From: Minisyncoccota bacterium
GTDB taxonomy: Bacteria; Patescibacteriota; Minisyncoccia; Phycocordibacterales; UBA918
DNA: 64,000 nucleotides
Assembly: GCA_021734905.1 (NCBI GenBank)
Contig: JAIPIB010000001.1
Coordinates: 136,821 to 200,820, forward strand
Direction: 5' to 3'
The notes under the pieces were generated by a model. That model did not search any database and had not been told where the DNA came from. It was given only the letters and a program-made list of their open reading frames with translations. How positions within the stretch are numbered: the stretch's first letter is position 1; each line of letters opens with the position of its first letter. Both the position numbers and the translations under genes were made by a program. Positions 1,403 through 37,786 of the stretch are shown one piece after another.

Positions 1403-4400
1403 GTGGATACATTTTTGGCACATAATAAAGTTGAGGGTAATTCAATCAGGATTTTTTTTAATGCCAGTGTGGTTGGCCGCATATTTTTTTTGGTCTCTTT
1501 TTTCTTCCTCTTCAGCTACTCAGTTTCTTTTGCCTCTGGTGAGGTTGCGACGAGTTCCCTAATGTTCGATAGTACTCAGAGTCAGTATCTTACAAGAACA
1601 GCCGTAACACCTACAGATAATAAAAAGTGGACATATAGTACTTGGGTTAAGCGTGGACAGATAGGTACAGGTGTCCATAATTCTATACTTGGAGCATACA
1701 CAGATGGAAACAACTATGCGAGCATATATTTTGGTTCAGGTGATATGTTGGTTTTTAAACAGGTGTCCGGGGGAGTAAATGCACCGGAAGTAGATTTCAC
1801 ACCTTTGTTTCGAGACCCATCAGCTTGGTACCATGTAGTAGTTGTATATGATTCAGCCAACACGATACAGAGTCATAGGGTAAGAGCTTACGTTAATAAT
1901 GTTGAGTTGATAGAACAAACATTGTATGGGTCAGAGTCACAAAATCAGGCAAGTTTAATCAACTCTGCAATTGCACACACTGTCGGAAGATATGCAGGCG
2001 GTTCTAATTATCATGACGGCTACCTCTCAGACGCATACTTCGTAGACGGACAAGCGCTCAATCCAACTTCTTTTGGTCAAGCAGATTCAAACACCGGTAA
2101 CTGGATACCAAAATCATATGCAGGGACATACGGTACAAACGGCTTCCATATGAAGTTTAGTAGTTCGACCGCTCTCGGAGCGGACTCATCTGGTAATGGA
2201 AATAATTGGACCACCAATGGTGGAATGTCTTCCACTACTAATCAAGTTATTGATACTCCGCTTAATAACTTTGCGACGCTTAATCCAATCGATATGTATC
2301 AATCAGCCGCGATAACAACTTTCAAAGATGGAAATTTGAGAGCTGATGCAAATAATATAGCCCAAGTATCCTATGTTAGAAGTTCAATGGCCATGAAAGG
2401 CCCAACTTATTTTGAATGGACATTAAATTCTTGGTCTAACTCCAGCTACCCTCACGTCGGAATACGCAGTATAAACGAGCCGATGGCATCACCACCAAGT
2501 GATGGTATTAGATATAGTCAAGATGGAACTATAAATAATGGTGGAGGTAATTACACACTAAATGGAGCATCGTTATACACCGCACTATCTACAAATGATA
2601 AAGGGATGATTGCGTTTGACCCAGCGTCTGGAAAGATTTGGATGGGAAGAAATGGTATATGGTTTAATAGTGGCGACCCAGCAAATGGAACTGGTTATGT
2701 TGCTACCTTCCCAGCTAATGGAGAATATACACCATATATACAACTATCAACTGATTCTACAACATTTAATTTCGGCCAACGCCCGTTCACTTACACCCCA
2801 CCAACCGGCTTCAAATCTCTCTCTACTGCAAACTTGCCCACCCCAACTATCCTCAAACCTAATCAGCATTTTGATATAGTAAAGTATTATGCAGAAACAT
2901 CTAACGGAACATATAGTACTGGCACCTTAGCATTCAAACCAGACTTTACTTGGATTAAAAATAGAGATAATGTTGAGAGTCACTATCTAATAGATATAGT
3001 TCGTGGTAATACCAACATGACAAATAAGTTTCTTTCATCTAACAGCACAGGAGCAGAGGGGGCAGGTGGTGTTTCAGGAACGACTTTCAGTGTTACTCCA
3101 ACGGGGTATGAATTTACAGAAAGTAGTATAGGTGCAGGTGAGCTATATTATTCAGGAAGATCTTATGTTGGTTGGAACTGGAAAGCAGGCAACGCAACCA
3201 CCACCAACACAGACGGAACAATTACAAGTACAGTATCTACAAATCCAACAGCTGGGTTCTCGATTGTCTCGTATACAGGGACAGGTGCAAATGCAACAGT
3301 AGGGCATGGATTAGGTTCATCGCCAACTATGATAATACTAAAAAATAGAACTGATGCTTCTACACCGTGGGCAGTTTGGCACTCTGGAATATCAAATACA
3401 GAATATTTATATTTAAATTCTACAAATGCAAAGGCAACAGGTGTAAACTTATGGAATAGTACATCATCTACTCCTACGACATTTAGTGTTGGTAGTTCTC
3501 AAGATACTAATTATAATACAAAAGAATTTATTGCTTATGCCTTCTCTGAGGTCCCTGGTTACTCCAAGTTCGGCACATACACCGGTAATGGAAGCACTGA
3601 TGGTCCGTTTTTGTATACAGGATTTAAACCACGATACATTATGATTAAACGTACTGACGCTGCGGGATATAGTTGGGATACATATGACACATCGCGCTCT
3701 ACATACAATCCTTTAGATCTTCGTGTTTATGCTGATTCGTCTAGCGTAGAAGTTTCTGCGGGGGGAGGTATTGATTCTGTATCGAATGGTTTTAAGATTA
3801 GGACTGCTGGTAATTATGACATTAATTATTCTGGAGGTACCTATATCTACGCCGCCTTTGCTGAGACTACGATGCTACCTACCGCGGAAGACACCTTTCC
3901 ATCGGTGAGTACTCCAATTGTTGTATCTGTACTTGATACTTCGGCAACCTTTGGAGCCACCTTAGACTCAGCAGGTGACAGTCCTGTCACTGCACGTGGA
4001 ATATGTTATGGAACATCACCAGCTCCAACAAACTGTGTTGCTGATAGTGCTACAACAACAGGAGCATACACCAAGTCGATCGCTGGACTTTCGACATCTA
4101 CCACCTATTACTTCAGAGGATACGCAACCAATGCTCGTGGCACATCATATTCAAGTGACGGCTCAACGATGACACTTGCATCGGTCATTACTTTAGCACC
4201 TCACACCCTAAACCAAGTCACCAACACCTTCACTTCCACAAACAAAACAAACACCGAACTCTTCGCATTCAACCTCTCATCAGGTGATGCTGATGTAACC
4301 GGTATAGCTTTCGATCTTCAAGGAATACAGGGGGTAGAAACAGGAGACCTCACTAACTTCGCCCTCTATGAAGACACAAACAATGACAAAACACACGATG

Positions 4401-5377
4401 GTGGAGATATAGCTGTTGGAGGTAGTGGTACTCCCGTAATCAATGGACAGACAGGTACCATTACGTTTGGTACAACATTTAATGTGAGTACTGACACAGA
4501 CTACATCCTTGTGGGAGACATTTCCGATATTAAAGTACAAGACAGTATGACCGTTTCACTTATTGCAACTGACATCACGTCAACAGCAAGTGTTGTTGCA
4601 ACCACATCACCAACAAACATCCAACATATACGTCTTGGTAAGGCGAGTGAGGGAGGAGGTGGAGGAGGTGGTTTTTCAAAACAAATTATTGGCACTGAGG
4701 CACCAGCTGGAGATGGGATACAGTCTGATGGAAGTGAAAATGGAAACGGAGGGTCATCCATCGACCCCAACACCGGCTCCACCATCGGTAACGAACCCGG
4801 TTTCAACGCACCAAGTAACACTGGCACCCCCTATAGCGCATGGACAGCAGGAGCAAACGCATACAGCTCAGACGGTGTATACACCACAACCTCAGCAAGT
4901 AACCAACAATCATATGGAAACTTCAACTTCACAGTCCCTTCAAACAATCAAATCACTGGTATAGCAGTAAAACTCGAAGCCTCAGGCAGTACCGCTGCAG
5001 GCAACATATCAGTCAAACTCTCATGGGATGGAGGCAGTAGTGTCACTGCACTAAAAACTACAGGAACCATGGGACTCACTGACGCAATATATGCGCTCGG
5101 TGGCCCTTCAGATACCTGGGGTCACTCATGGACACCAGCAGAACTCAACAACGGGCTCTTCACCATTGAACTCATTGCAAACCCGAGTGGAAACACCATT
5201 CAGCTTGATGCGGTGCAGGTTAAGGTATTCTACCAAGCAACAGGTGGGGGTAGAGGTGGTGGGGGAATGATATACAACGACCTTGAACCAAAGAACTTCT
5301 TTGCGAATGTGTATTCTGCAGTTGGATGTATGTTTGGCGCCTTTATTGATAGGATGTTTTGGTGGTTGTGGGAGTAA
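1403..5377 (+). CDS. Giant secreted or surface protein (1324 aa). It has an N-terminal signal/TM, several concanavalin-A/LamG-like beta-sandwich modules, FN3-like modules, Gly runs and Thr/Ser/Asn-rich sequence. Probable adhesin.
   Basis: Hydrophobic N-terminus 'IFFLVSFFFLFSYSVSFASG'. LamG-like segment 'AWYHVVVVYDSANTIQSHRVRAYVNNVEL'. FN3-like segment 'ARGICYGTSPAPTN...TYYFRGYATNARGTSYS'. Poly-Gly at aa ~1010 and ~1290. The start codon (GTG at 1403 or TTG at 1415) is uncertain. Confidence 0.6.
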   Translation: MDTFLAHNKVEGNSIRIFFNASVVGRIFFLVSFFFLFSYSVSFASGEVATSSLMFDSTQSQYLTRTAVTPTDNKKWTYSTWVKRGQIGTGVHNSILGAYTDGNNYASIYFGSGDMLVFKQVSGGVNAPEVDFTPLFRDPSAWYHVVVVYDSANTIQSHRVRAYVNNVELIEQTLYGSESQNQASLINSAIAHTVGRYAGGSNYHDGYLSDAYFVDGQALNPTSFGQADSNTGNWIPKSYAGTYGTNGFHMKFSSSTALGADSSGNGNNWTTNGGMSSTTNQVIDTPLNNFATLNPIDMYQSAAITTFKDGNLRADANNIAQVSYVRSSMAMKGPTYFEWTLNSWSNSSYPHVGIRSINEPMASPPSDGIRYSQDGTINNGGGNYTLNGASLYTALSTNDKGMIAFDPASGKIWMGRNGIWFNSGDPANGTGYVATFPANGEYTPYIQLSTDSTTFNFGQRPFTYTPPTGFKSLSTANLPTPTILKPNQHFDIVKYYAETSNGTYSTGTLAFKPDFTWIKNRDNVESHYLIDIVRGNTNMTNKFLSSNSTGAEGAGGVSGTTFSVTPTGYEFTESSIGAGELYYSGRSYVGWNWKAGNATTTNTDGTITSTVSTNPTAGFSIVSYTGTGANATVGHGLGSSPTMIILKNRTDASTPWAVWHSGISNTEYLYLNSTNAKATGVNLWNSTSSTPTTFSVGSSQDTNYNTKEFIAYAFSEVPGYSKFGTYTGNGSTDGPFLYTGFKPRYIMIKRTDAAGYSWDTYDTSRSTYNPLDLRVYADSSSVEVSAGGGIDSVSNGFKIRTAGNYDINYSGGTYIYAAFAETTMLPTAEDTFPSVSTPIVVSVLDTSATFGATLDSAGDSPVTARGICYGTSPAPTNCVADSATTTGAYTKSIAGLSTSTTYYFRGYATNARGTSYSSDGSTMTLASVITLAPHTLNQVTNTFTSTNKTNTELFAFNLSSGDADVTGIAFDLQGIQGVETGDLTNFALYEDTNNDKTHDGGDIAVGGSGTPVINGQTGTITFGTTFNVSTDTDYILVGDISDIKVQDSMTVSLIATDITSTASVVATTSPTNIQHIRLGKASEGGGGGGGFSKQIIGTEAPAGDGIQSDGSENGNGGSSIDPNTGSTIGNEPGFNAPSNTGTPYSAWTAGANAYSSDGVYTTTSASNQQSYGNFNFTVPSNNQITGIAVKLEASGSTAAGNISVKLSWDGGSSVTALKTTGTMGLTDAIYALGGPSDTWGHSWTPAELNNGLFTIELIANPSGNTIQLDAVQVKVFYQATGGGRGGGGMIYNDLEPKNFFANVYSAVGCMFGAFIDRMFWWLWE

Positions 5378-7345: not shown

Positions 7346-8110
7346 ATGTGCATTCGTGAAATAATAATCACAGGAGCTGTAGCGGTGATTTTTACGCCAA
7401 TCGCTATGTCTATTTTTGGGATTGCTGGAGCTCAAGTTATGCAAAGTAGCGGATATCGTATTCAGAGTGACAGCATTAATTTTGGCGGAGGATTATCAAC
7501 ATCGACAAATTATGCATTAGAAGCGACAGCAGGAGAGGTTGCATCAGGGGACGGCGCAAGCGCGAGTTTTAATATAAGGGCTGGATATCAGCAGATGGTC
7601 AATTCGTTCATCTCCATATCTGCAGCATCTTCGGTAACGATGACTCCGTCGATTCCGGGTGTTTCAGGTGGTATAGCGAATGGCTCAACATCAGTGACGA
7701 TCATCACTGATAGTGCTGCTGGATATCAACTTACAATTGCAGCATCACAAAGTCCAGCATTAACTAATCTTGGTAATTCAATAGCAGATTATGTTCCTAG
7801 CGGGAATCCAGATTTCTCTTTTATTACGGGAGCAAGTGATTCTCATTTTGGGTATTCTCCATCAGGTGTCGATATCGTTGATCGATTCAAGGATAATGGG
7901 GCTGTGTGCGGTGGGGGAGGAGGTGAGGTCGCTCTTGCATGCTGGGACGGTCTAAGTACGGATGACGTTCCTATTGCACGGTCATCATCTGCCAATACAC
8001 CAAATGGTGCAACGACAACGGTATATTTTAGGGTTGGTGTAGGGGGCTCCGTTGTGCAGACCGGCGGGACATATACTGCCACGACAACACTTACTGCAGT
8101 ATCATTATGA
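7346..8110 (+). CDS. Small secreted Thr/Gly-rich beta protein, paralog of 5556-6251 (WxL-like, ends 'TYTATTTLTAVSL').
   Basis: N-terminal TM 'IIITGAVAVIFTPIAMSIFGIAGA'. C-terminal 'GGTYTATTTLTAVSL' parallels 'GFYVATGTLTAVTNP' of the first paralog. The gene ends with TGA and overlaps the next gene by 4 nt. Confidence 0.5.
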   Translation: MCIREIIITGAVAVIFTPIAMSIFGIAGAQVMQSSGYRIQSDSINFGGGLSTSTNYALEATAGEVASGDGASASFNIRAGYQQMVNSFISISAASSVTMTPSIPGVSGGIANGSTSVTIITDSAAGYQLTIAASQSPALTNLGNSIADYVPSGNPDFSFITGASDSHFGYSPSGVDIVDRFKDNGAVCGGGGGEVALACWDGLSTDDVPIARSSSANTPNGATTTVYFRVGVGGSVVQTGGTYTATTTLTAVSL

Positions 8111-9675
8111 CCGATATAATACGTAAAACATCTGTATATCTATTTTTATCTATCTTCATATTTTTTAGTTTTATATTTCCTACACACCATGTTGATGCAG
8201 TAACAGATGACTTCACTGTCCGCACCCTTGTCGGGGGCGATACGACACCACCTTCTGTTCCGAGTGCATTAGTCGCTACTCCGGTTGCTGTGTCGCAGAT
8301 TGATCTTGTATGGGCTAGTTCTACTGATGACTATATATTGTCTGGATATAACGTATGGAGAGGCGACTCTATTATTGCAACAACAACTCTGACAACATAT
8401 TCAGACGTTGGGCTCACTGCGAGCACGACGTATAGCTATTATGTAACCGCGTTTGACTCGTCTGGTAATGTGTCAGCCTCCTCAACCATTGTCAGTGCAA
8501 CAACTCTAAGTCCTGCACCAGCAGCTGCTGTGTCAGGTCAAACGTATGGCAGTTACGTAAGGCAACTTGGTGACGAAATTATTTCGCTCGAAATATTTCC
8601 GCAACGAAATTCTGTGAATTTTAAGTACGAGACAAGAGGAAACATTCGAACAGCTATTCGATGGGGAAGGACAGATTCCTATGAACTTGGGTCTCTTGTT
8701 GAAAGCACTTTTAAGAAAGGACATGACACAGAAATCACTGGACTCATTCCAAATACAAAATACACATTTCAGATTGAAGGTGAAAATGGGTTTGGAAATT
8801 ATGGATTGATACATAATGGAACATTTCAGACACTTCCTCCTGAAGATATTTTTCCTCCAGGAAACGTGACGAATCTTAGACTACGAAAAGAAGATGGAGG
8901 AAATACACTGTCGTGGATAAACCCGAAAGACCCAGATCTTGTAAAAATTCGCGTCGTCAGGAGTGATCGGTTCTATCCGAGTGACATCGCGGATGGGTGG
9001 GTTATTTATGAGGGTCTCGGTACAGAGGTGTATGACGCTGGCGTCGCAAGCAGCTCGAGGCAATATTATTCTGTTTTTACTTATGATGAACTCGGTAATG
9101 TCTCTTCTGGAGCAGTCATTGCGACGCCAAGAATAGAAAAAGACGAAGAAACTAAGAATGAAATTGATCCTACAATAAATCTTATATCGTTACGATTTGA
9201 TGGTATGGTATTTACTCAAGAAGGGAGCTTACTTCCTATTAAAGATGGAAGCGTTAGAATTGACGGCTCGAAACTTCTTACTATATCTATACCGTATGAG
9301 CAGGTTCCGGAACATCTAAAGACAATACTGGTAACGGTGATTGACAGTAGAGACCATGGTCGCGAGTTCTCTTTTTTGCTTCGCGTCAATGCAGATAAAA
9401 CTATGTATAGCGGCACACTTTCGCCATTTGGAACGACGGGTGATTTTCCTTTACGAGTGACAATTTTTGATTTTAAGACAGAGCAGATCGGATACACCGA
9501 CGGTGTCATTGCTTCCTATGTAAGCCCAATACACTCTGGATTAAGCTCAGAGGGGTTTTTTAGCTCGATAGTTCGATTTATATCATCTGGAGATGGTATG
9601 TACTCGATATGGTTTATTGTCCTCCTCATCCTTCTTCTTTATTTTGGGCGACGACTTGTACGAACACAGTGGTGA
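8107..9675 (+). CDS. Membrane-anchored surface protein with a signal peptide, two fibronectin type III-like domains and a C-terminal TM.
   Basis: FN3-like module 1 'PSVPSALVATPVAVSQIDLVWASS...YSYYVTAFDSSGNVS'. FN3-like module 2 'PPGNVTNLRLRKEDGGNTLSWINP...YYSVFTYDELGNVS'. C-terminal 'IWFIVLLILLLYFGRRLVRTQW'. Confidence 0.55.
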   Translation: MTDIIRKTSVYLFLSIFIFFSFIFPTHHVDAVTDDFTVRTLVGGDTTPPSVPSALVATPVAVSQIDLVWASSTDDYILSGYNVWRGDSIIATTTLTTYSDVGLTASTTYSYYVTAFDSSGNVSASSTIVSATTLSPAPAAAVSGQTYGSYVRQLGDEIISLEIFPQRNSVNFKYETRGNIRTAIRWGRTDSYELGSLVESTFKKGHDTEITGLIPNTKYTFQIEGENGFGNYGLIHNGTFQTLPPEDIFPPGNVTNLRLRKEDGGNTLSWINPKDPDLVKIRVVRSDRFYPSDIADGWVIYEGLGTEVYDAGVASSSRQYYSVFTYDELGNVSSGAVIATPRIEKDEETKNEIDPTINLISLRFDGMVFTQEGSLLPIKDGSVRIDGSKLLTISIPYEQVPEHLKTILVTVIDSRDHGREFSFLLRVNADKTMYSGTLSPFGTTGDFPLRVTIFDFKTEQIGYTDGVIASYVSPIHSGLSSEGFFSSIVRFISSGDGMYSIWFIVLLILLLYFGRRLVRTQW

Positions 9676-30091: not shown

Positions 30092-31162
30092 TTAGTCTTG
30101 CAGTGCAACATGCCACACAGACATATTGTTATTTTTGTTTACGTCTTGTGAAGAATAAACCGTTGTTGGAATTCTAACGAAATCTTTTTTCACACTGTCA
30201 TCAATGGTAAAGCCAAGCGTAAATTCAACATGTTCCTGTGGCTTGAGTGCTACTTGTGGATCTGATTTATAGATGCCACCACCAGGGAGTACTATGCTAA
30301 AAGTCCACGTTGAAGATGTCTTTGTTCCAATATTACGAATATCAAATTTAATTGCATTTTTAAGATCGTAATTATAGGTAGGTGTGTAAACAAATACGTT
30401 ATTTTTGAGAATACCACTCCCAATCATTTTAACCTGTAAATCGGAGTATCCGTTTGGATTTGATTGCGGGTAAATTATTTTTTGTGTAAATACAGGAGTG
30501 GTTGCTGCCGGCTTTTGTACCGCAACTACTGCAGCTTCTGGTTCCATAATTTCTCCTTCAGGAATAGTGACGGTAGTCTCGTCAGTAGTTAGTTTTGTAT
30601 CTAATTCCTCCATAGCAAGAGATTCACCTGTAGGTATTGCAGCGTTTACAACGGTTACTTTTGTCTCACCAGTAACTGTTGTGCTGCCAACTTCGTTCGT
30701 AAATCTGACTTTGAGTGGAATGTCACTGAATCTGAGTTCATCAGAATTAACACTGAGAAAAAGTCCATTCACCGTTGAGGGAAGGGAAAGGACATCAGTA
30801 CAACTTACCGGCACAAGATCACCCTCAGCACTTCGAACAAGGAGATCTACTCCGTTGGTGCAGGTGTAGCTGAAATGATATTCACCTGGTTCTTTAAGAT
30901 CAGTCCATGTCACTTGGAATGATTCATCAGAGTTAACAACTGATTTCTCTGTAGAGAGTGAAAAATCCTCTGATGGCCGATACTGTGAAATGTTCTGCGC
31001 TATAGACGCGAGTGAAGAAAAAGCATGAGGCGCACGCTTAATACCCTCTGCAGCAAGCCACACAAGAAAGAAAATTGTGGTAAGAAAACCAATAATCGCA
31101 ATGATCTTGATTGCTGGCTCACGTAATTGTGATGTTTTCATACGCGGCATACTACAATGCAT
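30092..31162 (-). CDS. Hypothetical N-terminally membrane-anchored extracellular protein (beta-rich, Thr/Val-rich), divergent from the sortase gene.
   Basis: 'IKIIAIIGFLTTIFFLVWLAA' TM near the N-terminus. The true start may be the internal Met 21 nt downstream. Confidence 0.5.
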   Translation of the reverse strand: MHCSMPRMKTSQLREPAIKIIAIIGFLTTIFFLVWLAAEGIKRAPHAFSSLASIAQNISQYRPSEDFSLSTEKSVVNSDESFQVTWTDLKEPGEYHFSYTCTNGVDLLVRSAEGDLVPVSCTDVLSLPSTVNGLFLSVNSDELRFSDIPLKVRFTNEVGSTTVTGETKVTVVNAAIPTGESLAMEELDTKLTTDETTVTIPEGEIMEPEAAVVAVQKPAATTPVFTQKIIYPQSNPNGYSDLQVKMIGSGILKNNVFVYTPTYNYDLKNAIKFDIRNIGTKTSSTWTFSIVLPGGGIYKSDPQVALKPQEHVEFTLGFTIDDSVKKDFVRIPTTVYSSQDVNKNNNMSVWHVALQD

Positions 31163-31230: not shown

Positions 31231-31962
31231 TTGACAAAATTGAGAAATGGGGTACTATTTAAAGCTAAATTACTGAGCAATATGGAAGACATGATACATA
31301 AAGATAACGAATTACGAAATATGTCAAAACTTGAAGAGAGGATAGTTTTTTTCTTTGTGTGTATTGGTATTATTTCGATAACATATGGTGTACTTTTTGT
31401 ACTTGATTTTCTCCCAGAGAAGAAAGTGCTTGACACTGATACTGTCGCGCTTATGGATGAACAGCTAGAGAATCTTGAATCGAATGAAGTAACAGCTCTA
31501 GATGAGGAGTCCGTTCCTGTTGAAGCTCTGCCAATAAGCATTATTATTGACTCACTGGATAAGAAAGTAACAATTCTTAATCCAGATACTGATTCTATTT
31601 CAGCACTTGATGAAGCCCTTCTTTCTGGCGTTGTCCGCCATCCAGATTCAGCGGATTTTAATGAGAAGGGAACTATTTTTCTTCTTGGACATTCGAGCTA
31701 TCTTCCGGTAGTAAATAATAAAAACTTTCAAGCATTTAATGGAATTCAGAAACTTAAATGGGGAGACACGATTCGTCTTCGTTCATCTGATACTGAGTAT
31801 GTCTATAGTGTTGCAAGGGTTTACGAAGCAAAGGCGACAGATGCTGAAGTGAAGATTGAAAGAGGTGTTTCAAGCCTCATACTTTCAACATGCAACTCTT
31901 TTGGTACAAAAGATGACCGATTTATTGTTGAGGCTATGTTTGTCGAGTCACATAGTTTTTAA
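31231..31962 (+). CDS. Sortase-family transpeptidase with an N-terminal TM anchor.
   Basis: 'IFLLGHSSY' corresponds to the catalytic His of the sortase 'LAGH' motif. 'LILSTCNSFG' corresponds to the TLxTC Cys. 'DDRFIVEAMFVE' supplies the conserved Arg. TM 'IVFFFVCIGIISITYGVLFVL'. Start codon choice (31231/31282/31321) is uncertain. Confidence 0.7.
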   Translation: MTKLRNGVLFKAKLLSNMEDMIHKDNELRNMSKLEERIVFFFVCIGIISITYGVLFVLDFLPEKKVLDTDTVALMDEQLENLESNEVTALDEESVPVEALPISIIIDSLDKKVTILNPDTDSISALDEALLSGVVRHPDSADFNEKGTIFLLGHSSYLPVVNNKNFQAFNGIQKLKWGDTIRLRSSDTEYVYSVARVYEAKATDAEVKIERGVSSLILSTCNSFGTKDDRFIVEAMFVESHSF

Positions 31963-32016
31963 CCCCTATTTTTAAGTGGAAGCTATAAAAGCTTTAAAAT
32001 AAGCCACCTCAGACCC

Positions 32017-32045
32017 TTGACAAGAAAATTAGTACGACGTATAAT
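32017..32045 (+). promoter_or_regulatory. Consensus sigma70-type promoter (TTGACA-17-TATAAT) driving module 1 of the island.
   Basis: 'ttgacaagaaaattagtacgacgtataat' has perfect -35 and -10 hexamers with a 17-nt spacer. Confidence 0.6.
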
Positions 32046-32051
32046 ATATAG

Positions 32052-32246
32052 ATAAGGTTCTTCTCTTGATGATCTAAAGGTATATTGTTCTCTCACAGGT
32101 TAGGCATATGGTAGTTGGCTTTTTGAATGGAAAAGTTTTAAATCTTCTTTTTAGGAAGCCACCTGCGAGCACATTGTGCGCAAAGGGAGGGTATAAGTCT
32201 GCATGAAGATGTAGACATTGATCGTTGATTTTAAAAGGAGACCATC
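32052..32246 (+). promoter_or_regulatory. Conserved long 5' leader, copy A, upstream of a GC-rich cargo gene. Candidate cis-regulatory RNA.
   Basis: It shares ordered blocks with 35157-35343: 'tggtagttggct', 'tttaggaagccRcct', 'gggaggNNtNNgtctgcat', 'gacaNgtNcattgatNNN...aaaaggag' immediately before ATG. Confidence 0.5.
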
Positions 32247-33374
32247 ATGGTCGTCAAGACAATCCGCGCCATAGTGGCGCTTCTTACCGTAGCAATGTTT
32301 GCTGGATGTGCCCAAATGGGCGGCGGAGGCGGTGCTGGGTCCTCAGAAGGACCAAGCGCCGCAGCTGTCGTGGCAGCACAACAAGTCGCTCTACAAGAGC
32401 AAGCCCGGGCGCAAGCAACTATCGCACCTTCACCGCTGGTTCAAAAAACCAGCATAACCGAACCAGCGGCAGCAAGATTGCCGTTGGCGAGAAAGGGAGA
32501 AATCTCTTCTACAAAGGTGCTCGCGAAGAACATTCGCGAAGCACTTGCGAAGGATCCTTCCGGTAACAAGAGGTTGGTCAAGGGGACCAATACCACAGCA
32601 GCTGGCTTTCTTGCTTCAGTGCAAGCCGCCGGTGGCACGGTGAATGGCCTCGAGGCACTTCCTGTATATCTTGAGTCGCTCATGGCTCGTGATATGCCTT
32701 CGGGCAAACTTACGATGTCGCGGGTGTTGTACTCGGCAGGGAAAGGTGTCGAGAAGTATCAGCTCGACATCAAGAATGGCTTCACACGCTTGGCGCACAA
32801 GGGAGAAAAGGGGTGGTACGACGCCAATACGGGTCGCCTTATTCTCGCTGGTGACTGTAGCAACAGTCCTCTCAGGTTTACCGAGGGGCCAGTTGCAACA
32901 GTGCCTGTGCAACAAGCACAAGCGACACAGCCAGCTCTTCAGTGCGGCGACGGCAAGAAGTATTTTGTCGTTCGTATCTTGCAAAAGGAAGCGATGGAAG
33001 TCGCAGGCGTCAGGGGAGCGGTCGCCGTTGAGCGGGCGAAGCGTCAGTATCATGACGGCGCATCACTTTCGGGTACATTCGCTGCTGAATTCAAGGCGAT
33101 GCTCGACGCGGGGGAGTTGTCTCGGAGCACAAAACCCCACAAGGTTTCAGTGAATCTACTGAAGCCAGACGGTGGTGTGGTCGAAGTCCTTCCCTTCGGT
33201 GCCGTCGTGGGAGAATATCGCAATGAATTGCCCAAGGAATTTCGTGGGCAGGATCAAATGCAGGTAGTTTTTCCCGAGTCGATCAAGCTTCTTCATTATC
33301 CCTTCAAGGATATGAGGGAGATGCGATCAAGCTTCGTCAATTGCGTGAATGTTTTTTACGCAATCGAGAAGTAA
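32247..33374 (+). CDS. Putative lipoprotein (375 aa) encoded by a GC-rich, compositionally foreign gene.
   Basis: Lipobox 'LTVAMFAGC'. Poly-Gly/Ala/Gln N-terminal linker. Coding GC is roughly 55-60% against about 40% for flanking genes (by eye). No family recognised. Confidence 0.55.
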   Translation: MVVKTIRAIVALLTVAMFAGCAQMGGGGGAGSSEGPSAAAVVAAQQVALQEQARAQATIAPSPLVQKTSITEPAAARLPLARKGEISSTKVLAKNIREALAKDPSGNKRLVKGTNTTAAGFLASVQAAGGTVNGLEALPVYLESLMARDMPSGKLTMSRVLYSAGKGVEKYQLDIKNGFTRLAHKGEKGWYDANTGRLILAGDCSNSPLRFTEGPVATVPVQQAQATQPALQCGDGKKYFVVRILQKEAMEVAGVRGAVAVERAKRQYHDGASLSGTFAAEFKAMLDAGELSRSTKPHKVSVNLLKPDGGVVEVLPFGAVVGEYRNELPKEFRGQDQMQVVFPESIKLLHYPFKDMREMRSSFVNCVNVFYAIEK

Positions 33375-33388
33375 TCTTCTGAGGTTGA

Positions 33389-33432
33389 GTAGCAGGTGCG
33401 CTCGCGCACCTGCTACTAATCTCTTTTTTCAT
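33389..33432 (+). terminator. GC-rich hairpin with T-run after the lipoprotein gene.
   Basis: 12-bp stem 'gtagcaggtgcg...cgcacctgctac' followed by 'taatctctttttt'. Confidence 0.65.
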
Positions 33433-33489
33433 TCTTTCAATATTCTTACGTGCTGAACGTAGGTGAGAATATTCAGAAGTATGAACAAT
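33422..33489 (+). promoter_or_regulatory. Conserved ~65-nt element, copy A, with an internal inverted repeat, between the hairpin and the VPYTG-protein gene.
   Basis: 'ttcattctttcaatattcttacgtgctgaacgtaggtgagaatattcagaagtatgaa' is about 80% identical to 36573-36644. The inverted repeat aatattc/gaatatt is replaced by aatactc/gagtatt in copy B (compensatory change). Confidence 0.5.
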
Positions 33490-33512
33490 ATTTTAGAAAA
33501 TTATTTATTGCT

Positions 33513-35060
33513 ATGAAAAAAATATATTCAAAAATAAATATACTAGTACTTCGAGGTAGTCTCGTTGCGTTTTTTCTCGTTGTATTTTTTACTCAAAGTA
33601 TAGGATCTACACTTAGTGCTCAATATGCTTACGCCGATGAAGGGGGAGTTGGGAGCTCAGTATTTGTTTACATTGATGAGGGAGGTGTAGGAAGTAGCAA
33701 TTATGAACCATGGCCTGATATCGACTATGGTGCTTATACAGAAGGAGGGATTGGGAGTAGCTATGGTTCAGTTCAGTCTGTCACAAGTAATACTTCAGGT
33801 GCAGCCGTGTCATATGAATACATAGTCCAGTATGAGAATAGTCCATATGCATATTCGTATGCCCCGACAACATACTCATATAATCCGACGACGTATGGTT
33901 CATATCAGTATTCATACGCCCCAACAAACTACTCATATAATCCAACAACATACTCAGATAGATCATCAACATATTCAACCTATGATTATTCATATGATCC
34001 AAAAATATATAATGATTATGGTGACGTGCGATGTGATATTGATGCGAGTGATACACGTGTAGAAAAAGGTGATCGAATTACACTTGATTGGAATACGACG
34101 AATGCAGATGATGTTCGTATCAATCAGGGTATTGGAGATGTTTCTGATGATGGAAGTAGACGAGTCACGATAACGAAAGATACAACCTTCACACTTACGG
34201 CGCGCAATGGTTCTGATACGAGAACATGTCGTGTACAGGTTAGGGTTGACGATGATTCAGATGATATTCCTCGTTGTCGACTTACTATTTCAGATACCCG
34301 TATTCAGGTGGGAGAGCAAGTAACGCTCTCATGGGATAATCTTCGCACCGATCGACTTGTCCTTCGAGATAGTCATGGAATTACCATCGCTGATTCAAAG
34401 TATGATCGTACGCTCGATGAAGATGCAGGAGCACTCTTTCTTCGTCCAACAAGGCAGACAGATTATGTGGCAACGGTATATAACGGAAATGAACGACGAA
34501 CGTGTACTGTTGGTGTGCAAACTGACAACGTGGTAATTACGAGTGTGCGTTCACAGGGTGGTATTCCACTTGCTGGGGTTCCATATACAGGTTTTGAGGC
34601 TGGTCCAGCTCTAACAACTTTCTTTTATCTCGTCCTTATAATTTGGGGGGTTATTATTGCCTACGTCCTTGTGATAAGAAAAAAAGTACTTGTAAATGAA
34701 CCTGACGTCCTTGATGTATATACAAAAATGACAGAGACAAATATGCCAGAGATTTCTGTCGATATGTATGAACAATCACTAGCAACACCAAGTAATTTAC
34801 CCATTGATACTGATGAGAGTCAGGATGATGAAGACTCTCCATTACTTGATGAAACATTTCAAGCACTCGAAGGCTACGCACATGAGCATAAAACACTTGT
34901 TTCAAGTGAAGCACTTCGCTTTATTGAATCACAAGGAGGGACTATGGAAGCGCAGGTTGCAACTCTTGATCATGTTATAAAGTTGGCGAAAGCGCGATAC
35001 CCAATAGAAAATGGATGGACAGTTCTTAATAAAGATCGAGTAATCACCCTACTTGAATAG
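33513..35060 (+). CDS. Surface protein with signal peptide, 'EGG[VI]GSS' and Tyr-rich 'YSY(A/N)PTTY' repeats, and two Ig-like Cys-pair domains. It ends in a 'VPYTG' + TM + 'RKK' sortase-like sorting signal, followed by an extra ~125-aa C-terminal domain.
   Basis: 'MKKIYSKINILVLRGSLVAFFLVVFF' signal. 'SQGGIPLAGVPYTGFEAGPALTTFFYLVLIIWGVIIAYVLVIRKK' then 'VLVNEPDV...ITLLE'. Start taken at 33513 (signal-peptide Met); an in-frame ATG also exists at 33450. Confidence 0.6.
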   Translation: MKKIYSKINILVLRGSLVAFFLVVFFTQSIGSTLSAQYAYADEGGVGSSVFVYIDEGGVGSSNYEPWPDIDYGAYTEGGIGSSYGSVQSVTSNTSGAAVSYEYIVQYENSPYAYSYAPTTYSYNPTTYGSYQYSYAPTNYSYNPTTYSDRSSTYSTYDYSYDPKIYNDYGDVRCDIDASDTRVEKGDRITLDWNTTNADDVRINQGIGDVSDDGSRRVTITKDTTFTLTARNGSDTRTCRVQVRVDDDSDDIPRCRLTISDTRIQVGEQVTLSWDNLRTDRLVLRDSHGITIADSKYDRTLDEDAGALFLRPTRQTDYVATVYNGNERRTCTVGVQTDNVVITSVRSQGGIPLAGVPYTGFEAGPALTTFFYLVLIIWGVIIAYVLVIRKKVLVNEPDVLDVYTKMTETNMPEISVDMYEQSLATPSNLPIDTDESQDDEDSPLLDETFQALEGYAHEHKTLVSSEALRFIESQGGTMEAQVATLDHVIKLAKARYPIENGWTVLNKDRVITLLE

Positions 35061-35068
35061 GTGGGTGA

Positions 35069-35110
35069 CTACCGGATCAGCCAGACGTATATGTCTGGCT
35101 GATCCGGTAG
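35069..35110 (+). terminator. Hairpin terminator after the first VPYTG-protein gene.
   Basis: 'ctaccggatcagccagacgtatatgtctggctgatccggtag' is an 18-bp perfect stem. Confidence 0.6.
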
Positions 35111-35122
35111 GAGGTGTTATAT

Positions 35123-35150
35123 TGACATCGATACCATTATGCAGTATAGT
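35123..35150 (+). promoter_or_regulatory. Near-consensus sigma70-type promoter (TTGACA-17-TATAGT) driving module 2.
   Basis: 'ttgacatcgataccattatgcagtatagt'. Confidence 0.55.
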
Positions 35151-35156
35151 TTTGCA

Positions 35157-35343
35157 CAAATAAGTTCTCGGGGCGTTCTTAATTTTTTTCGGTCTCAAAC
35201 CGAAAAAACAAAAATTGGTAGTTGGCTCGCTGTATAGAAAATTTCTTTTAAAATTCTATTTAGGAAGCCGCCTATGATTGATGTAGGGGGAGGCGTCTGC
35301 ATTTTTGTGGACACGTTCATTGATATGAAAAGGAGGTCGCACC
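35157..35343 (+). promoter_or_regulatory. Conserved long 5' leader, copy B (paralog of 32052-32246).
   Basis: Same ordered blocks as copy A. It ends 'aaaaggaggtcgcaccATG'. Confidence 0.5.
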
Positions 35344-35835
35344 ATGACAAAACTTACGTGGCGTCGCTACTGGTGGAGTGTCATGATTGTGGCACTCCTT
35401 GCATTTATAGCAGGAATTGATTCTTCACCAAAAGTACGTGCTCTTGCAAAAGGTTATTACCAACTGGTGATTGACCTGAAAGGAGACTTTGCTGGAGCAG
35501 TCAAGGCACGCACTTCACCTAACAGCGAGTTTGAAAAAACTGTTGTTATGAAAACAAAACCTAGAGAGAGTCCTCCAAAACTAGAGGAGTCTTTGGAAGG
35601 TTTGACTCCTGAGCCAGCATCAAAAAAGGCTGAGTCAGAGAAGGTTGTGGTCCTGCCTTCGAAAGCGGAACCATTACCTACGAAGGTGAAGAAGGAAAAG
35701 AAGCAAGCGAACAAACCTGCCAAAGAATCCTCTTCGAGGAAACCTGCAGTTGTGTGTAGGGATGTCGATGTAGGACCATCCAAGGCAGACGCCATTCTTG
35801 GGATTCCTCCCAGAAGTGTATGTTCAAACTCATAG
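35344..35835 (+). CDS. Hypothetical membrane-anchored Lys/Pro/Glu-rich protein (GC-richer cargo gene).
   Basis: TM 'WWSVMIVALLAFIAGI'. Low-complexity 'KPRESPPKLEESLEGLTPEPASKKAESEK...'. The initiation context 'ggaggtcgcaccATG' is identical to that of the next gene. Confidence 0.45.
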   Translation: MTKLTWRRYWWSVMIVALLAFIAGIDSSPKVRALAKGYYQLVIDLKGDFAGAVKARTSPNSEFEKTVVMKTKPRESPPKLEESLEGLTPEPASKKAESEKVVVLPSKAEPLPTKVKKEKKQANKPAKESSSRKPAVVCRDVDVGPSKADAILGIPPRSVCSNS

Positions 35836-35849
35836 AAGGAGGTCGCACC

Positions 35850-36509
35850 ATGAAACGTAACAATTGGTTTTTGCCTGTTGTGGCAGTGCTTGCACTCGTC
35901 ACGAGCGGATATGCCTTTGCAGCATCGTGTACCAAGCACGAACAGAAAGGCTGTCTGGAAATTCAGGTCCTCAATGTCTCGTGGGAGAAGGGAAATTCAA
36001 ACCTTCAAGGACTAGACGGGCCGCCAAAAGATGACGACGACAGACTGAGACGCACCAAGAGTCTTGGGCCGGATTTGCTCAAGGCATACGAGAGAGGTGA
36101 TGTCGAAGCGGCAGCACCTCGGTCGTACCATGTCTTCTTTTGGAAACCGAACATGGACATCACGACTGAAGCGATGGCATCATGGCGGTTGAACGGGAAG
36201 ATAGTTTCACGTGGGGATGTTGAGGAGGTTACGGGGAAGGTCCCAGGGCCAAAATCGACTGGGCTTGGAGAACCAAACCGCGTCTATAGGGTTTGGGTGA
36301 CTGGAGAAAAAGCTTTTGCTCTTTCATTTCAGGCACCGTGGGACCTGTTCACCAAAGATACGGTGATTATGGTCACCCCTGAAGGCGGGAAAAGTGTCCA
36401 TCCAGGGAACGGAAAAGCGCTCTGGATCATGCCAAAATACCTGAACGAAACAATCAGGGTCGGGGCGTGGGATTGGGTATTGATGGCCTTTGTCCTCAAT
36501 CCTGAGTGA
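35850..36509 (+). CDS. Hypothetical secreted protein (signal peptide; Trp-rich; GC-richer cargo gene).
   Basis: 'MKRNNWFLPVVAVLALVTSGYAFAAS' signal. Start chosen at the Met preceded by 'gaaggaggtcgcaccATG'; the ORF-track start at 35820 is probably too long. Confidence 0.5.
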   Translation: MKRNNWFLPVVAVLALVTSGYAFAASCTKHEQKGCLEIQVLNVSWEKGNSNLQGLDGPPKDDDDRLRRTKSLGPDLLKAYERGDVEAAAPRSYHVFFWKPNMDITTEAMASWRLNGKIVSRGDVEEVTGKVPGPKSTGLGEPNRVYRVWVTGEKAFALSFQAPWDLFTKDTVIMVTPEGGKSVHPGNGKALWIMPKYLNETIRVGAWDWVLMAFVLNPE

Positions 36510-36534
36510 GGTTGTTCTTTTGAAGTATGGATCT

Positions 36535-36585
36535 ATCCAGCAGTCACACGAATGTGTGTGACTGCTGGATAATCTTTTTTATTCA
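36535..36585 (+). terminator. Hairpin with T-run after the secreted-protein gene.
   Basis: 15-bp stem 'atccagcagtcacac gaat gtgtgactgctggat' then 'aatcttttttatt'. Confidence 0.65.
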
Positions 36586-36644
36586 TTCTTTCAATACTCA
36601 TGCGTACATGATGTAGGTGGGAGTATTTAGAAGCATGAATCAAT
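36573..36644 (+). promoter_or_regulatory. Conserved ~65-nt element, copy B (paralog of 33422-33489).
   Basis: 'ttcattctttcaatactcatgcgtacatgatgtaggtgggagtatttagaagcatgaa'. Confidence 0.5.
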
Positions 36645-36651
36645 AATAAGT

Positions 36652-37719
36652 ATGAAAAATAATATTAAGACAAGTAGCAAAATGAGTACCTGGATGTATG
36701 TGTGTCTTACTGCGCTCATGCTTATGGTTGGACTCTATATAATTCTTCCTTCATTCGTATTAACAGAAAGAGTTGAGCGTGTTGTGTATACCACAATGAA
36801 TGCTGATGCGTTTGGTGGAGGTGGAGGTGGTGGTGGTGGTGGAGGTGGTGGTGGAGGCGATGCAGGTCCTGGTGTCGGAGACGCCGGCAGCGTTGGTGGA
36901 GGAGAAGGCGGAGTTGGAGTTTCTGCAGCTGCTGCACCAGCTGCGCCTAGTTCCCCTGCATCTGGAGGAGAAGGTGGGGTTGGGTCAAGCGTAGGAGCTT
37001 CAGGAGCATCTGGAGGAGAAGGTGGAGTTGGGTCAAGCGTAGGAGCTTCAGGAGCATCTGGAGGAGAAGGCGGAGTTGGGTCAAGCGTAGGAGACTCATC
37101 TAGTGTAGGTTCCTCTGGAGACACTGGAGGAGCTGGAGATACTACCTTGGCACTTGCTCCAGTCGTACCACCAGTAGTGCCTCCAGTCGTACCACCAGTA
37201 GTGCCTCCAGTAGTACCTCCAGTGGTTCCACCCGGAGGTGGAGGAGGGGGTGGCAGTAGTAGTGGTGGAGGTGGAGGAGGTTCAAGCTCACCTCGATGTG
37301 TTTTTACGGTTTCTGACAACGTTATCACTCTAGGTCAAACAGTAACGCTTTCATGGAATAACACGAGAACAAATAACATTACTATCATTGACAGTCTTGG
37401 TATTGTTTTTGTCGACACTGTTAACGCACCGATTTTTGATGAAGATACAGGAAGTGTCACCATTACTCCGATTCAATCAACAACATATACACTTACAGCA
37501 ATACGTGGAGCACGTACTCGAGATTGTTCCGTGGATGTTTCAATCGTGGATTTAAATAGTGCGAGATCTCAAGATGGAATTTCTCTATCTCGAGTCCCTT
37601 ATACCGGCATTGGAACAAATCTTTCTATAGTATTCTTTGGCGGTGTTGCGGCATGGCTTGCATCTGTAGGATACGCTCTCCATATTCGACGCAGAAAAGT
37701 AGTTACGGAAAAAATATAA
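36652..37719 (+). CDS. Surface protein with an N-terminal TM/signal, a very long Gly/Ser/Ala/Pro low-complexity region built from DNA tandem repeats, and one Ig-like Cys-pair domain. It ends in a 'VPYTG' + TM + 'RRRK' sortase-type sorting signal.
   Basis: '...SQDGISLSRVPYTGIGTNLSIVFFGGVAAWLASVGYALHIRRRKVVTEKI*'. The Ig-like domain is homologous to those in 33513-35060. 'GGEGGVGSSVGASGAS' occurs 3 times, 'VVPP' 6 times, and the Gly run is 14 residues. Confidence 0.6.
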   Translation: MKNNIKTSSKMSTWMYVCLTALMLMVGLYIILPSFVLTERVERVVYTTMNADAFGGGGGGGGGGGGGGGDAGPGVGDAGSVGGGEGGVGVSAAAAPAAPSSPASGGEGGVGSSVGASGASGGEGGVGSSVGASGASGGEGGVGSSVGDSSSVGSSGDTGGAGDTTLALAPVVPPVVPPVVPPVVPPVVPPVVPPGGGGGGGSSSGGGGGGSSSPRCVFTVSDNVITLGQTVTLSWNNTRTNNITIIDSLGIVFVDTVNAPIFDEDTGSVTITPIQSTTYTLTAIRGARTRDCSVDVSIVDLNSARSQDGISLSRVPYTGIGTNLSIVFFGGVAAWLASVGYALHIRRRKVVTEKI

Positions 37720-37734
37720 AGATAAGATTATAAT

Positions 37735-37766
37735 AAAAAACACAAGGCGCTGCCTTGTGTTTTTTA
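37735..37766. terminator. Bidirectional terminator between the VPYTG-protein gene (+) and thrS (-).
   Basis: 'aaaaaacacaaggcgctgccttgtgtttttt'. Confidence 0.7.
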
Positions 37767-37786
37767 TTTGCAGAGAGCCAGACTGC

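Follow-up and report, generated by a model that had tools for sequence, protein, structure and literature searches.

What kind of locus is the sortase-headed island at positions 31231 to 37766 of a 64-kb stretch of a Minisyncoccota bacterium genome (contig JAIPIB010000001.1)? Two tandem units follow the sortase gene, each leading from a promoter and a leader through one or two variable genes, here called cargo (cargo1 in the first unit, cargo2a and cargo2b in the second), to a hairpin, a short non-coding element and the gene of a surface protein with a VPYTG motif (surfA and surfB, respectively; Table 1). The original prediction saw in this a cassette system that loads foreign genes for secreted proteins into a fixed expression context. 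In the following, the window is the whole 64-kb stretch, to which the coordinates refer, and L-numbers (L003, L005 and so on) denote related loci from other genomes or metagenome contigs. The explanation that was found to fit best, and that is held here with moderate confidence, is a conserved sortase locus with a regulated 5′ untranslated region (5′ UTR) and a cargo slot whose contents recombine.

For the comparison, metagenome contigs were searched with the C-terminus of surfA; this gave 190 loci, 80 of which were fetched and compared. The gene order gyrB–orf356(−)–sortase–…–surfA–thrS(−)–dnaE(−) is present in almost all of these approximately 80 contigs from the Candidate Phyla Radiation (CPR), and the homologues of cargo1 also led to syntenic loci (L003, L005). 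The island would be the local version of a chromosomal locus that is conserved across a CPR (Paceibacteria-type) clade and in which a sortase is combined with a divergent membrane protein and one or two VPYTG sortase substrates. The same arrangement was found in two independent Logan assemblies (SRR12088350 and SRR12088351), with two NCBI accessions for each protein. Because independent assemblies agree and other genomes carry syntenic loci, an assembly chimera, which had been named as a possible pitfall, is excluded.

Table 1. Coordinates of the features of the sortase island in the window.
Feature	Position	Strand	Remarks
orf356	30092..31162	-	Divergent gene, N-terminal membrane helix, conserved sortase partner
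Sortase	31291..31962	+	Pfam PF04203, 61.4 bits (cut-off 26.6), E 8.9e-17
Promoter 1	32017..32045	+	TTGACA-17-TATAAT, 12/12
Leader 1	32046..32246	+	5′ UTR of cargo1, fold z-score -2.6
cargo1	32247..33374	+	375-aa lipoprotein (lipobox FAGC); GC3 0.548; domains A (~75-215) and B (~235-375)
Intrinsic terminator 1	33388..33417	+	13-bp stem (8 G-C), T-run leads into element
Element 1	33420..33492	+	62-nt element 33424-33485, hairpin 33428-33485; covariance model R1 86.6 bits, R2 55.6 bits
surfA	33513..35060	+	Putative sortase substrate, VPYTG at 34578-34592
Palindromic hairpin	35069..35110	+	21 bp, after surfA stop
Promoter 2	35122..35150	+	TTGACA-17-TATAGT, 11/12
Leader 2	35151..35343	+	Paralogue of leader 1: GTTCTC boxes, long hairpin 35216-35273, second hairpin, Shine-Dalgarno sequence
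cargo2a	35344..35835	+	163 aa, membrane-anchored, Lys/Pro/Glu-rich; GC3 0.384; NCBI: hypothetical
cargo2b	35850..36509	+	219-aa secreted protein, signal peptide ends AFA-AS; GC3 0.543
Intrinsic terminator 2	36534..36571	+	16-17-bp stem (17 pairs, 8 G-C in scan), then T-run
Element 2	36574..36646	+	62-nt element 36578-36639; covariance model R1 90.5 bits, R2 67.7 bits
surfB	36652..37719	+	Putative sortase substrate, VPYTG at 37594-37608
Hairpin	37732..37768	.	17-bp perfect inverted repeat flanked by A- and T-runs, between surfB and convergent thrS

A variable slot in a fixed regulatory frame

About 19 contigs, representing about 15 distinct loci, contain no cargo and consist of promoter, UTR, hairpin and surfA. 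In these empty loci, the stop codon of the sortase gene is followed by cTTGACAaa-17-TAnnnT, one or two GTTCTC-like boxes around a small hairpin, 40–100 nt, the element and surfA. A TTGACA-17-TAnnnT promoter lies just after the sortase gene in empty and occupied loci alike, and the promoters of the window together with their GTTCTC boxes correspond to the same promoter-proximal UTR as in the empty loci. In the occupied loci, the boxes and the element are separated by 0.8–4.5 kb encoding one to three proteins with a signal peptide or a lipobox. The slot proteins fall into at least ten families that are not connected by BLAST.

Nearly all empty loci are located in one clade of the sortase tree, of which the occupied loci form the sister clade, and the cargo type largely follows this tree. 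L054 belongs to the otherwise cargo-free clade and carries a pair of B and A cargo genes (7402–8216) that are 57% and approximately 43–56% identical to those of L043 and L045, which suggests either a transfer between the clades or repeated loss. Distances of 4–4.5 kb between sortase and element were observed in L057 and L058 (3774–8267) and in L033 (4643–8678). In these loci, some slot genes do not seem to code for secreted proteins, namely that of a 396-aa protein (L057) and a glutaredoxin-like open reading frame (ORF) of 77 aa (L033).

Judging from its conservation, the strong sigma-70-type promoter just after the sortase gene would drive the substrate gene. In one large subclade, an accessory operon with its own structured leader, a strong Shine-Dalgarno (SD) sequence and one to three small genes for secreted proteins or lipoproteins would sit inside the surfA UTR, between the GTTCTC boxes and the hairpin, and transcription would get to the downstream surface-protein gene by reading through the terminator.

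In the window, this unit is present twice (cargo1→surfA and cargo2a+cargo2b→surfB), and a scan of the loci with covariance model R2 gave two elements in the window only. The two leaders of the window share 69% and the two elements 80% identity, while comparisons with other genomes reach 73% and 86%. Because the copies in the window resemble those of other genomes at least as much as one another, the second unit would go back to an old duplication of promoter, leader and hairpin or to their import. Orthologues of surfB directly follow surfA in L003, L016 and L019, without a module of their own. As L005 and L100 have a cargo2b-type gene behind a cargo1-type gene, the arrangement of the window looks like a split of a cargo1–cargo2b operon into two units.

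The regulatory parts named in the original prediction could be recovered in both units, namely a consensus sigma70 promoter, a conserved leader of about 190 nt, measured here as about 200 nt, and a conserved element of about 65 nt, for which a length of 62 nt was determined. The two promoters are the two best consensus matches on the + strand within 9 kb. The leader core TGGTAGTTGGCT-N~35-TAGGAAGCC occurs exactly twice in the 64 kb (expected: 0), and the identity of the two leaders amounts to 69–76% overall. Since copies of leader and element exist in many other genomes, they are not unique to this one. The GC-rich hairpins after the cargo are present as well, as ordinary intrinsic terminators. 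A translation initiation context that was said to be used three times could not be confirmed to this extent: the exact sequence AAGGAGGTCGCACCATG occurs only twice, at 35330 and 35836, and cargo1 has the variant AAGGAGACCATCATG.

Leader 1 contains GTTCTC-type boxes (32057–32065 and 32087–32094), a long hairpin (32109–32164), a second hairpin (32197–32216) and a strong SD sequence (32235–32241), and can be aligned with the leaders of L003, L005 and L027. With an alignment of the leaders of the window, L003 and L005, nhmmer detected the same leader in L027 (E 2e-14), where the N-terminal domain of the cargo is a different one. More distant leaders of occupied loci show, by inspection, the promoter, the boxes, a long hairpin with the base GCAAGC…GCUCGCAGAAC, a second hairpin, a GUUCAUUGAAAC-like motif and the SD sequence; scans for them with short regular expressions were unspecific. 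In summary, the leader is a conserved sequence family with a predicted hairpin structure. A reading of the leader as a peptide gene (a 32-aa ORF was called in Logan) was rejected due to a frame shift caused by a 2-nt indel between leaders 1 and 2.

GTTCTC-like boxes, often two around a small hairpin, were also seen after promoter 2 (35164–35180) and in the empty loci L031, L034, L037, L062 and L066, and occur both with and without cargo. They are complementary to the 3′ arm of the element (GAGAAU), and an alternative pairing is conceivable.

The junction of terminator and element was also found in L003, L005, L007, L016, L019, L053 and L099–L101. An intrinsic terminator before the element is typical of the clade of the window; the other occupied loci have a hairpin at this position, where a T-run is often missing.

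The hairpin in the 5′ UTR of the surface-protein gene

The two 62-nt elements of the window are 79% identical, and each of them directly follows a terminator. Both fold as one long hairpin (z-scores −3.1 and −2.7), and element 2 differs from element 1 by a compensatory change from U-A to C-G. Model R2 gave 42 matches on the + strand in 0.95 Mb, one for each locus (two in the window) and always just upstream of a surfA-type gene; the other matches were only antisense shadows of the true ones. A pattern scan of genome contigs for the element resulted in 12 matches, of which only those in L007 and L016 were real, the other 10 being chance matches in unrelated taxa. Between the window and L003 or L005, the element is approximately 80–90% identical at the nucleotide level, the proteins only about 50%. 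The Rfam database contains no match to the element, and nothing came near a gathering score between 31900 and 37800; the only match in the window is one tRNA.

In an alignment of 34 distinct sequences, 83.7% of the cells were paired, compared to 76.9% after shuffling (reached in 0 of 500 shuffles) and 37–55% with slid partners, controls that can be exceeded by kinship alone, without any structure being needed. Double changes were found for 14 pairs, and the pair 26–59 (UA in 18, CG in 12 and UG in 4 sequences) is never broken. G·U pairs are frequent, one of them being conserved in 29 of the 34 sequences, and the length of the loop ranges from 2 to 10 nt across the loci. Because of the G·U pairs and the variable loop, the more likely reading is that the coding-strand RNA folds at the element, rather than that the DNA serves as an operator or promoter.

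That the element acts as DNA, as the operator of a dimeric repressor or as an alternative-sigma promoter of the surface-protein gene, is accordingly improbable. Such a role would explain the conservation of both arms beyond the needs of pairing, and in the clade of the window, the stretch from the terminator to surfA shows no other promoter. On the other hand, a loop varying from about 2 to 10 nt would break the fixed spacing of a promoter or operator, the changes are compensatory and include G·U, and in a DNA palindrome, the conserved G·U pair would correspond to a C·A mismatch. Furthermore, the element of the empty loci is located 60–130 nt downstream of the strong promoter and thus within the transcript, and a sigma-70 scan had no match in it. 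A sigma-70 or extracytoplasmic function (ECF) promoter was rejected as well, because the loop varies in length and the hexamers are poor.

The apical part of the hairpin is nearly invariant (UAYUCUUGCGUAC…GGUGUAGGURRGARUA). In the basal stem, UUCAU (or UUCGU) has a conserved AUGAA as its partner. Wherever the AUG 9–10 nt after the hairpin core is present, it is paired in the minimum free energy fold. In about ten loci, this AUG opens the long surfA ORF; elsewhere, including both copies in the window, it opens an upstream ORF of 2–11 codons (3–11 in the window) that ends at or just before the annotated start. In the case of element 1, this upstream ORF has 11 codons and its stop overlaps the start of surfA (ATGA).

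The 5′ UTR of the substrate gene ends in a conserved hairpin of about 60 nt whose outer stem pairs with the region of the start codon, and the hairpin would control the initiation of surfA translation via a factor recognizing the apical part. It is probably a new cis-regulatory RNA motif. Shorter motifs replace the hairpin upstream of surfA in L024, L069, L089 and L096 and in L032, L039, L054 and L081; the first type consists of a small hairpin with GGTGTAGGTA (or GGTATAGGTA) behind it, the second of TCCGGAATGATCCGGTGAGTG or a closely similar sequence. What is essential for function may be the GUAGGU core.

Exchange, origin and composition of the cargo

Cargo exchange is indicated by the comparison of L043 and L045. 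These strains are near-identical, with 100% amino acid identity in thrS and 99% in surfA. At the nucleotide level, the identity is 97–100% in the leader, 87% in cargo B, 74% in cargo A (about 70% in 100-nt windows) and again 99–100% from the element onward. The synonymous divergence (dS) is 0.54 and 1.24 in the cargo genes, compared to 0.02 in surfA, at a ratio of non-synonymous to synonymous divergence (dN/dS) of about 0.1. By this pattern, the cargo genes of the two strains are anciently diverged alleles brought in by recombination, not products of hypermutation. Hypermutation by a diversity-generating retroelement was rejected, as the substitutions in cargo A show no adenine bias and the dS of 1.24 is saturating; neither a reverse transcriptase among the flanking genes nor a direct repeat of cargo sequence was found.

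Similar discontinuities were observed in other pairs. In the clade of the window, L003 and L016 or L019 share 88–99% identity in thrS (mostly >90%), their cargo cannot be aligned, and the boundary lies at the terminator and element. L085 and L098 are 80% identical in the sortase and 75% in surfA, and only 25% in cargo2b. Closely related strains would swap cargo alleles by homologous recombination, for which the leader and the terminator or hairpin would serve as de facto homology arms.

An integron-like capture of cassettes, in which the hairpin would be an attC-like recombination site for promoter-less genes of secreted proteins, is very unlikely. The imperfect palindrome of about 60 nt at the end of every cargo block, the variable and compositionally atypical cargo and the strong promoter upstream would all be expected from it. 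It is contradicted first by the gene content: the called genes of L001–L006 comprise pheST, gyrB, orf356, the sortase gene, thrS, dnaE and ORFs without a Pfam family, with no integrase, transposase or recombinase domain among them, and the synteny is uninterrupted by genes outside this conserved set. Second, the hairpin is equally conserved in cargo-free loci, where it is the UTR hairpin of the surface-protein gene and not the end of a cassette, and there is one hairpin for each surface-protein gene rather than for each cargo gene. Third, the substitutions are compatible with G·U pairs on the + strand only, a sign of RNA instead of DNA. Finally, the cargo type follows the host phylogeny, and the allele exchange looks like homologous recombination across long identical flanks. 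The cassette interpretation is therefore only partly supported: a variable slot in a fixed regulatory frame stands, whereas an integrase, high-GC donors and a loading mechanism do not, no integrase, transposase or repeat signature of such a mechanism having been found.

The composition of the cargo was described as GC-rich, which applies to cargo1 and cargo2b; cargo2a is only mildly raised. The G + C content at third codon positions (GC3) has a background of 0.324 ± 0.037 in the 33 other ORFs of the window with at least 200 aa, and cargo1 and cargo2b lie about six standard deviations above it, so that the predicted non-native codon usage is borne out by calculation (0.55 versus 0.32 ± 0.04). 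Across the loci, GC3 of the cargo exceeds that of the flanks by a mean of 0.136 and is higher in 18 of 21 genes, and the excess was also found in L099–L101 and most further loci. Codon optimization for high expression was rejected as the cause, given that GAPDH, rpoB and rpoC have an ordinary GC3.

The original prediction attributed this composition to foreign genes from high-GC taxa. A recent horizontal acquisition from such organisms, for instance the host bacteria of the epibionts, would account for the GC3 of the window and for the similar excess in most occupied loci. It is nevertheless quite unlikely, because the cargo1 family is tiny (only 84 clusters among 1.84 billion representative proteins), all of its members with a readable context are located in the same CPR sortase locus, the cargo type follows the sortase tree and orthologues with only about 47–59% identity stay GC3-rich in hosts of differing GC content. 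In addition, the cargo of L005 has a native GC content, and the divergence of the cargo tracks or exceeds that of the flanks, without an anomalous similarity to outsiders. The persistence in orthologues that have diverged to about 47–51% identity points to a maintained bias instead of a recent import, and GC-biased gene conversion or a shared gene pool is more likely as the origin of the raised GC3 than an import from high-GC organisms.

Among the fetched loci, no homologue of cargo2a was found. Homologues of cargo2b are located behind a cargo1-type gene in L005 and L100 and behind a D-type gene in L085 and L098, and are also present in L007. In cargo1-type proteins, domains are shuffled: A and B are combined in the window and in L003, A occurs alone in L005 and C is combined with B in L027, as it is, by inspection of the upstream ORF, in L016. 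L099 contains a membrane-anchored long form of this type. Domain B of cargo1 best matches the beta-sandwich domains of Gram-positive pilins.

The data were also weighed against the plainest alternative, an ordinary surface-protein operon that was duplicated in tandem, with fast-evolving accessory genes and an unremarkable promoter, UTR and terminator. The cargo type mostly following phylogeny, the dN/dS of about 0.1 as expected from ordinary purifying selection and the standard parts (promoter, SD sequence, terminator) agree with it. It is still rather unlikely, as the hairpin is approximately 75–92% identical at the nucleotide level where the flanking surface proteins share 40–55%, the divergence jumps exactly at the cargo borders in near-identical strains, the shift in GC3 is systematic, and between the two units of the window, leader and element differ as much as they do from their counterparts in other genomes, which does not fit a simple recent tandem duplication.

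Several points weigh against a conserved locus with a regulated UTR and a recombining slot. The evidence for recombination comes from related loci in other genomes, not from the genome of the window. Transcription starts, terminator read-through and translational control are deduced from sequence. The nearly invariant apical part of the hairpin is uninformative on pairing, and approximately 13 loci have a different or degenerate upstream sequence in place of the standard hairpin. The surface-protein genes have no recognizable SD sequence and an ambiguous start codon, whereas the cargo genes have AAGGAGG. The consensus hairpin of the leader is common within the clade of the window, with one-sided changes only as support; for distant leaders, MAFFT and RNAalifold did not recover the long hairpin, and because this machine alignment failed, the similarity of these leaders depends on inspection and the one nhmmer match. 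Besides the native composition of the L005 cargo, it has to be considered that GC-biased gene conversion at a recombination hot spot is a guess as the cause of the raised GC3.

Sortase, substrates and biological significance

The sortase gene at the head of the island could be verified; its start was changed from the predicted position 31231 to 31282 or 31291 as the most likely ones. The catalytic His, Cys (LSTC) and Arg align with those of the Bacillus anthracis sortase 2kw8, and GH(S), L(S)TC and (D)R(F)IV are retained. The protein lies below the cut-off of every NCBIfam class model, with class D scoring best (34–38 bits versus 140–165), and class E reaching 26 versus 160. By these scores it is not assignable to a class, D and E being the closest. 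The partner gene orf356 adjoins the sortase gene in 49 related loci (tblastn) and has no match in Pfam or NCBIfam.

In a six-frame translation of the window, VPYTG occurs only at 34578 and 37594, each time followed by a membrane helix, so that surfA and surfB are the only two VPYTG proteins and both units end in such a surface protein as proposed. SurfA begins with a signal peptide and a low-complexity region rich in Tyr and Gly, continues with two Cys-bracketed repeats and VPYTG, and has, after a membrane helix, a cytoplasmic tail of about 115 aa that ends in a conserved domain, which is unusual among sortase substrates. In surfB, the signal peptide is followed by Gly/Ser repeats, a (VVPP)n stalk, a single Cys-bracketed repeat and VPYTG. 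The putative sorting signal of surfB is composed of the variant motif VPYTG, a helix and the basic RRRK tail (RRRKVVTEKI), that of surfA of the motif and a helix, followed by the tail of about 115 aa. The Cys-bracketed repeats of both proteins comprise about 85 aa each. No match was found in surfA and surfB with the LPXTG models of NCBIfam, nor in the cargo and surface proteins in general with Pfam, NCBIfam or PDB sequences.

The cytoplasmic domain of surfA was modeled (predicted local distance difference test, pLDDT, 80–89) as a helical bundle similar to an AAA+ lid and resembling the Lon alpha-subdomain; the searches for homologous proteins had given two proteins for cargo2b and three for the C-terminal fragment of surfA, and the second structure model thus comes from a shallow alignment. 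With this predicted fold, a role of the domain as a nucleic-acid-binding autoregulator of the hairpin is not supported.

The N-terminal regions of both surface proteins are of low complexity and hypervariable. Between L003 (9448–9700 and 11104–11500) and L016 or L019 they are only 30–60% identical at the nucleotide level; thrS and the surfA C-termini of these genomes are otherwise mostly >90% identical. In surfB (36796–37300), in-frame tandem repeats were found, consisting of a poly-Gly run, three 48-nt GGEGGVGSSVGASGAS units and 12-nt VVPP repeats. The repeat numbers differ in the orthologues of L003 and L016, and a length variation between strains is likely.

The window has a GC content of 42%, and the neighbors of the island are housekeeping genes (pheST, gyrB, thrS and dnaE, farther away GAPDH and rpoBC). 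In NCBI, the proteins of the island are annotated as hypothetical proteins (locus tags K9M10_00770–00795) that are identical residue for residue. The hairpin between surfB and thrS is probably a bidirectional terminator. The palindrome after surfA is 95% complementary and loopless, has no T-run and is located directly before promoter 2. Elsewhere in the window (1562–5377), a 1271-aa protein with a DUF7483 domain is encoded (E 9e-105).

In the literature, sortases of CPR bacteria are mentioned only as a family. The CPR Pam pilus, described in 2026 and found mainly in other CPR classes, works by donor-strand exchange with chaperone-like proteins, and sortases are only background there. Literature searches turned up no description of the VPYTG motif or family, the hairpin or the locus.

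The island resembles the sortase/LPXTG and pilus loci of Gram-positive bacteria (classes A, C, D and E) in that the sortase gene lies beside those of its putative substrates and that these have a signal peptide, repeated beta-rich domains, an xPxTG motif and a membrane helix, to which the short basic tail of surfB and the pilin-like beta-sandwich match of cargo1 domain B can be added. It differs in the motif VPYTG(F[E/D]AGP), in a sortase below the class cut-offs, in the cytoplasmic tail of surfA, which is about 115 aa long and includes a conserved domain, and in belonging to a CPR organism. With integron arrays (intI, attI, Pc, attC) it shares variable genes behind a fixed promoter, an imperfect inverted repeat of about 60 nt that closes the block and a cargo composition different from that of the host. 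Unlike these arrays, it has no integrase, the repeat is a UTR hairpin at the RNA level that is found in cargo-free loci as well, and the cargo families, restricted to the locus, are largely inherited vertically, with an exchange that looks homologous.

The pneumococcal cps locus between dexB and aliA and O-antigen clusters are hypervariable and are swapped by homologous recombination between conserved flanks. As in these loci, near-identical strains carry deeply diverged alleles or gene sets, the breakpoints lie in conserved flanks and the composition is atypical. In contrast, the unit of the island consists of one to three small genes for secreted proteins or lipoproteins inside the 5′ UTR of another gene, and its flanks are non-coding regulatory RNAs, not genes. 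The locus is thus best described as a Gram-positive-type sortase and surface locus combined with a hypervariable antigen-type locus, the likeness to integrons being superficial.

Translation is controlled in cis by hairpins in the 5′ UTR in the case of ROSE and fourU RNA thermometers, protein-binding operators and the expression platforms of riboswitches. Like these, the element is a single conserved hairpin immediately upstream of an ORF, and its basal stem pairs with the region of the start codon. It differs from them in having no Rfam family, no evident SD sequence and an almost invariant apical half, which suggests a specific partner rather than simple melting.

CPR bacteria (Patescibacteria) represent a large, mostly uncultured share of bacterial diversity and live attached to other microbes; to our knowledge, their host recognition and attachment are largely unexplained. 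The locus unites in a fixed position a conserved sortase with a VPYTG family, hypervariable, recombining secreted proteins and lipoproteins, and two conserved non-coding RNAs. With about 40 distinct examples, the new structured RNA motif is suited to a curation in the manner of Rfam, and the locus is a natural marker of strain-level variation in metagenomes. As a tentative and more far-reaching idea, leader and hairpin might form a regulatory and recombinational frame by which small secreted proteins and lipoproteins are swapped between episymbiont lineages and act together with the sortase-anchored surface protein, for instance in determining host specificity, with the hairpin as a new class of riboregulator that would couple the translation of the surface protein to a signal or protein. 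A role of the locus in surface remodeling or host interaction, as put forward in the original prediction, is plausible, and the locus supplies concrete candidates for determinants of host interaction.

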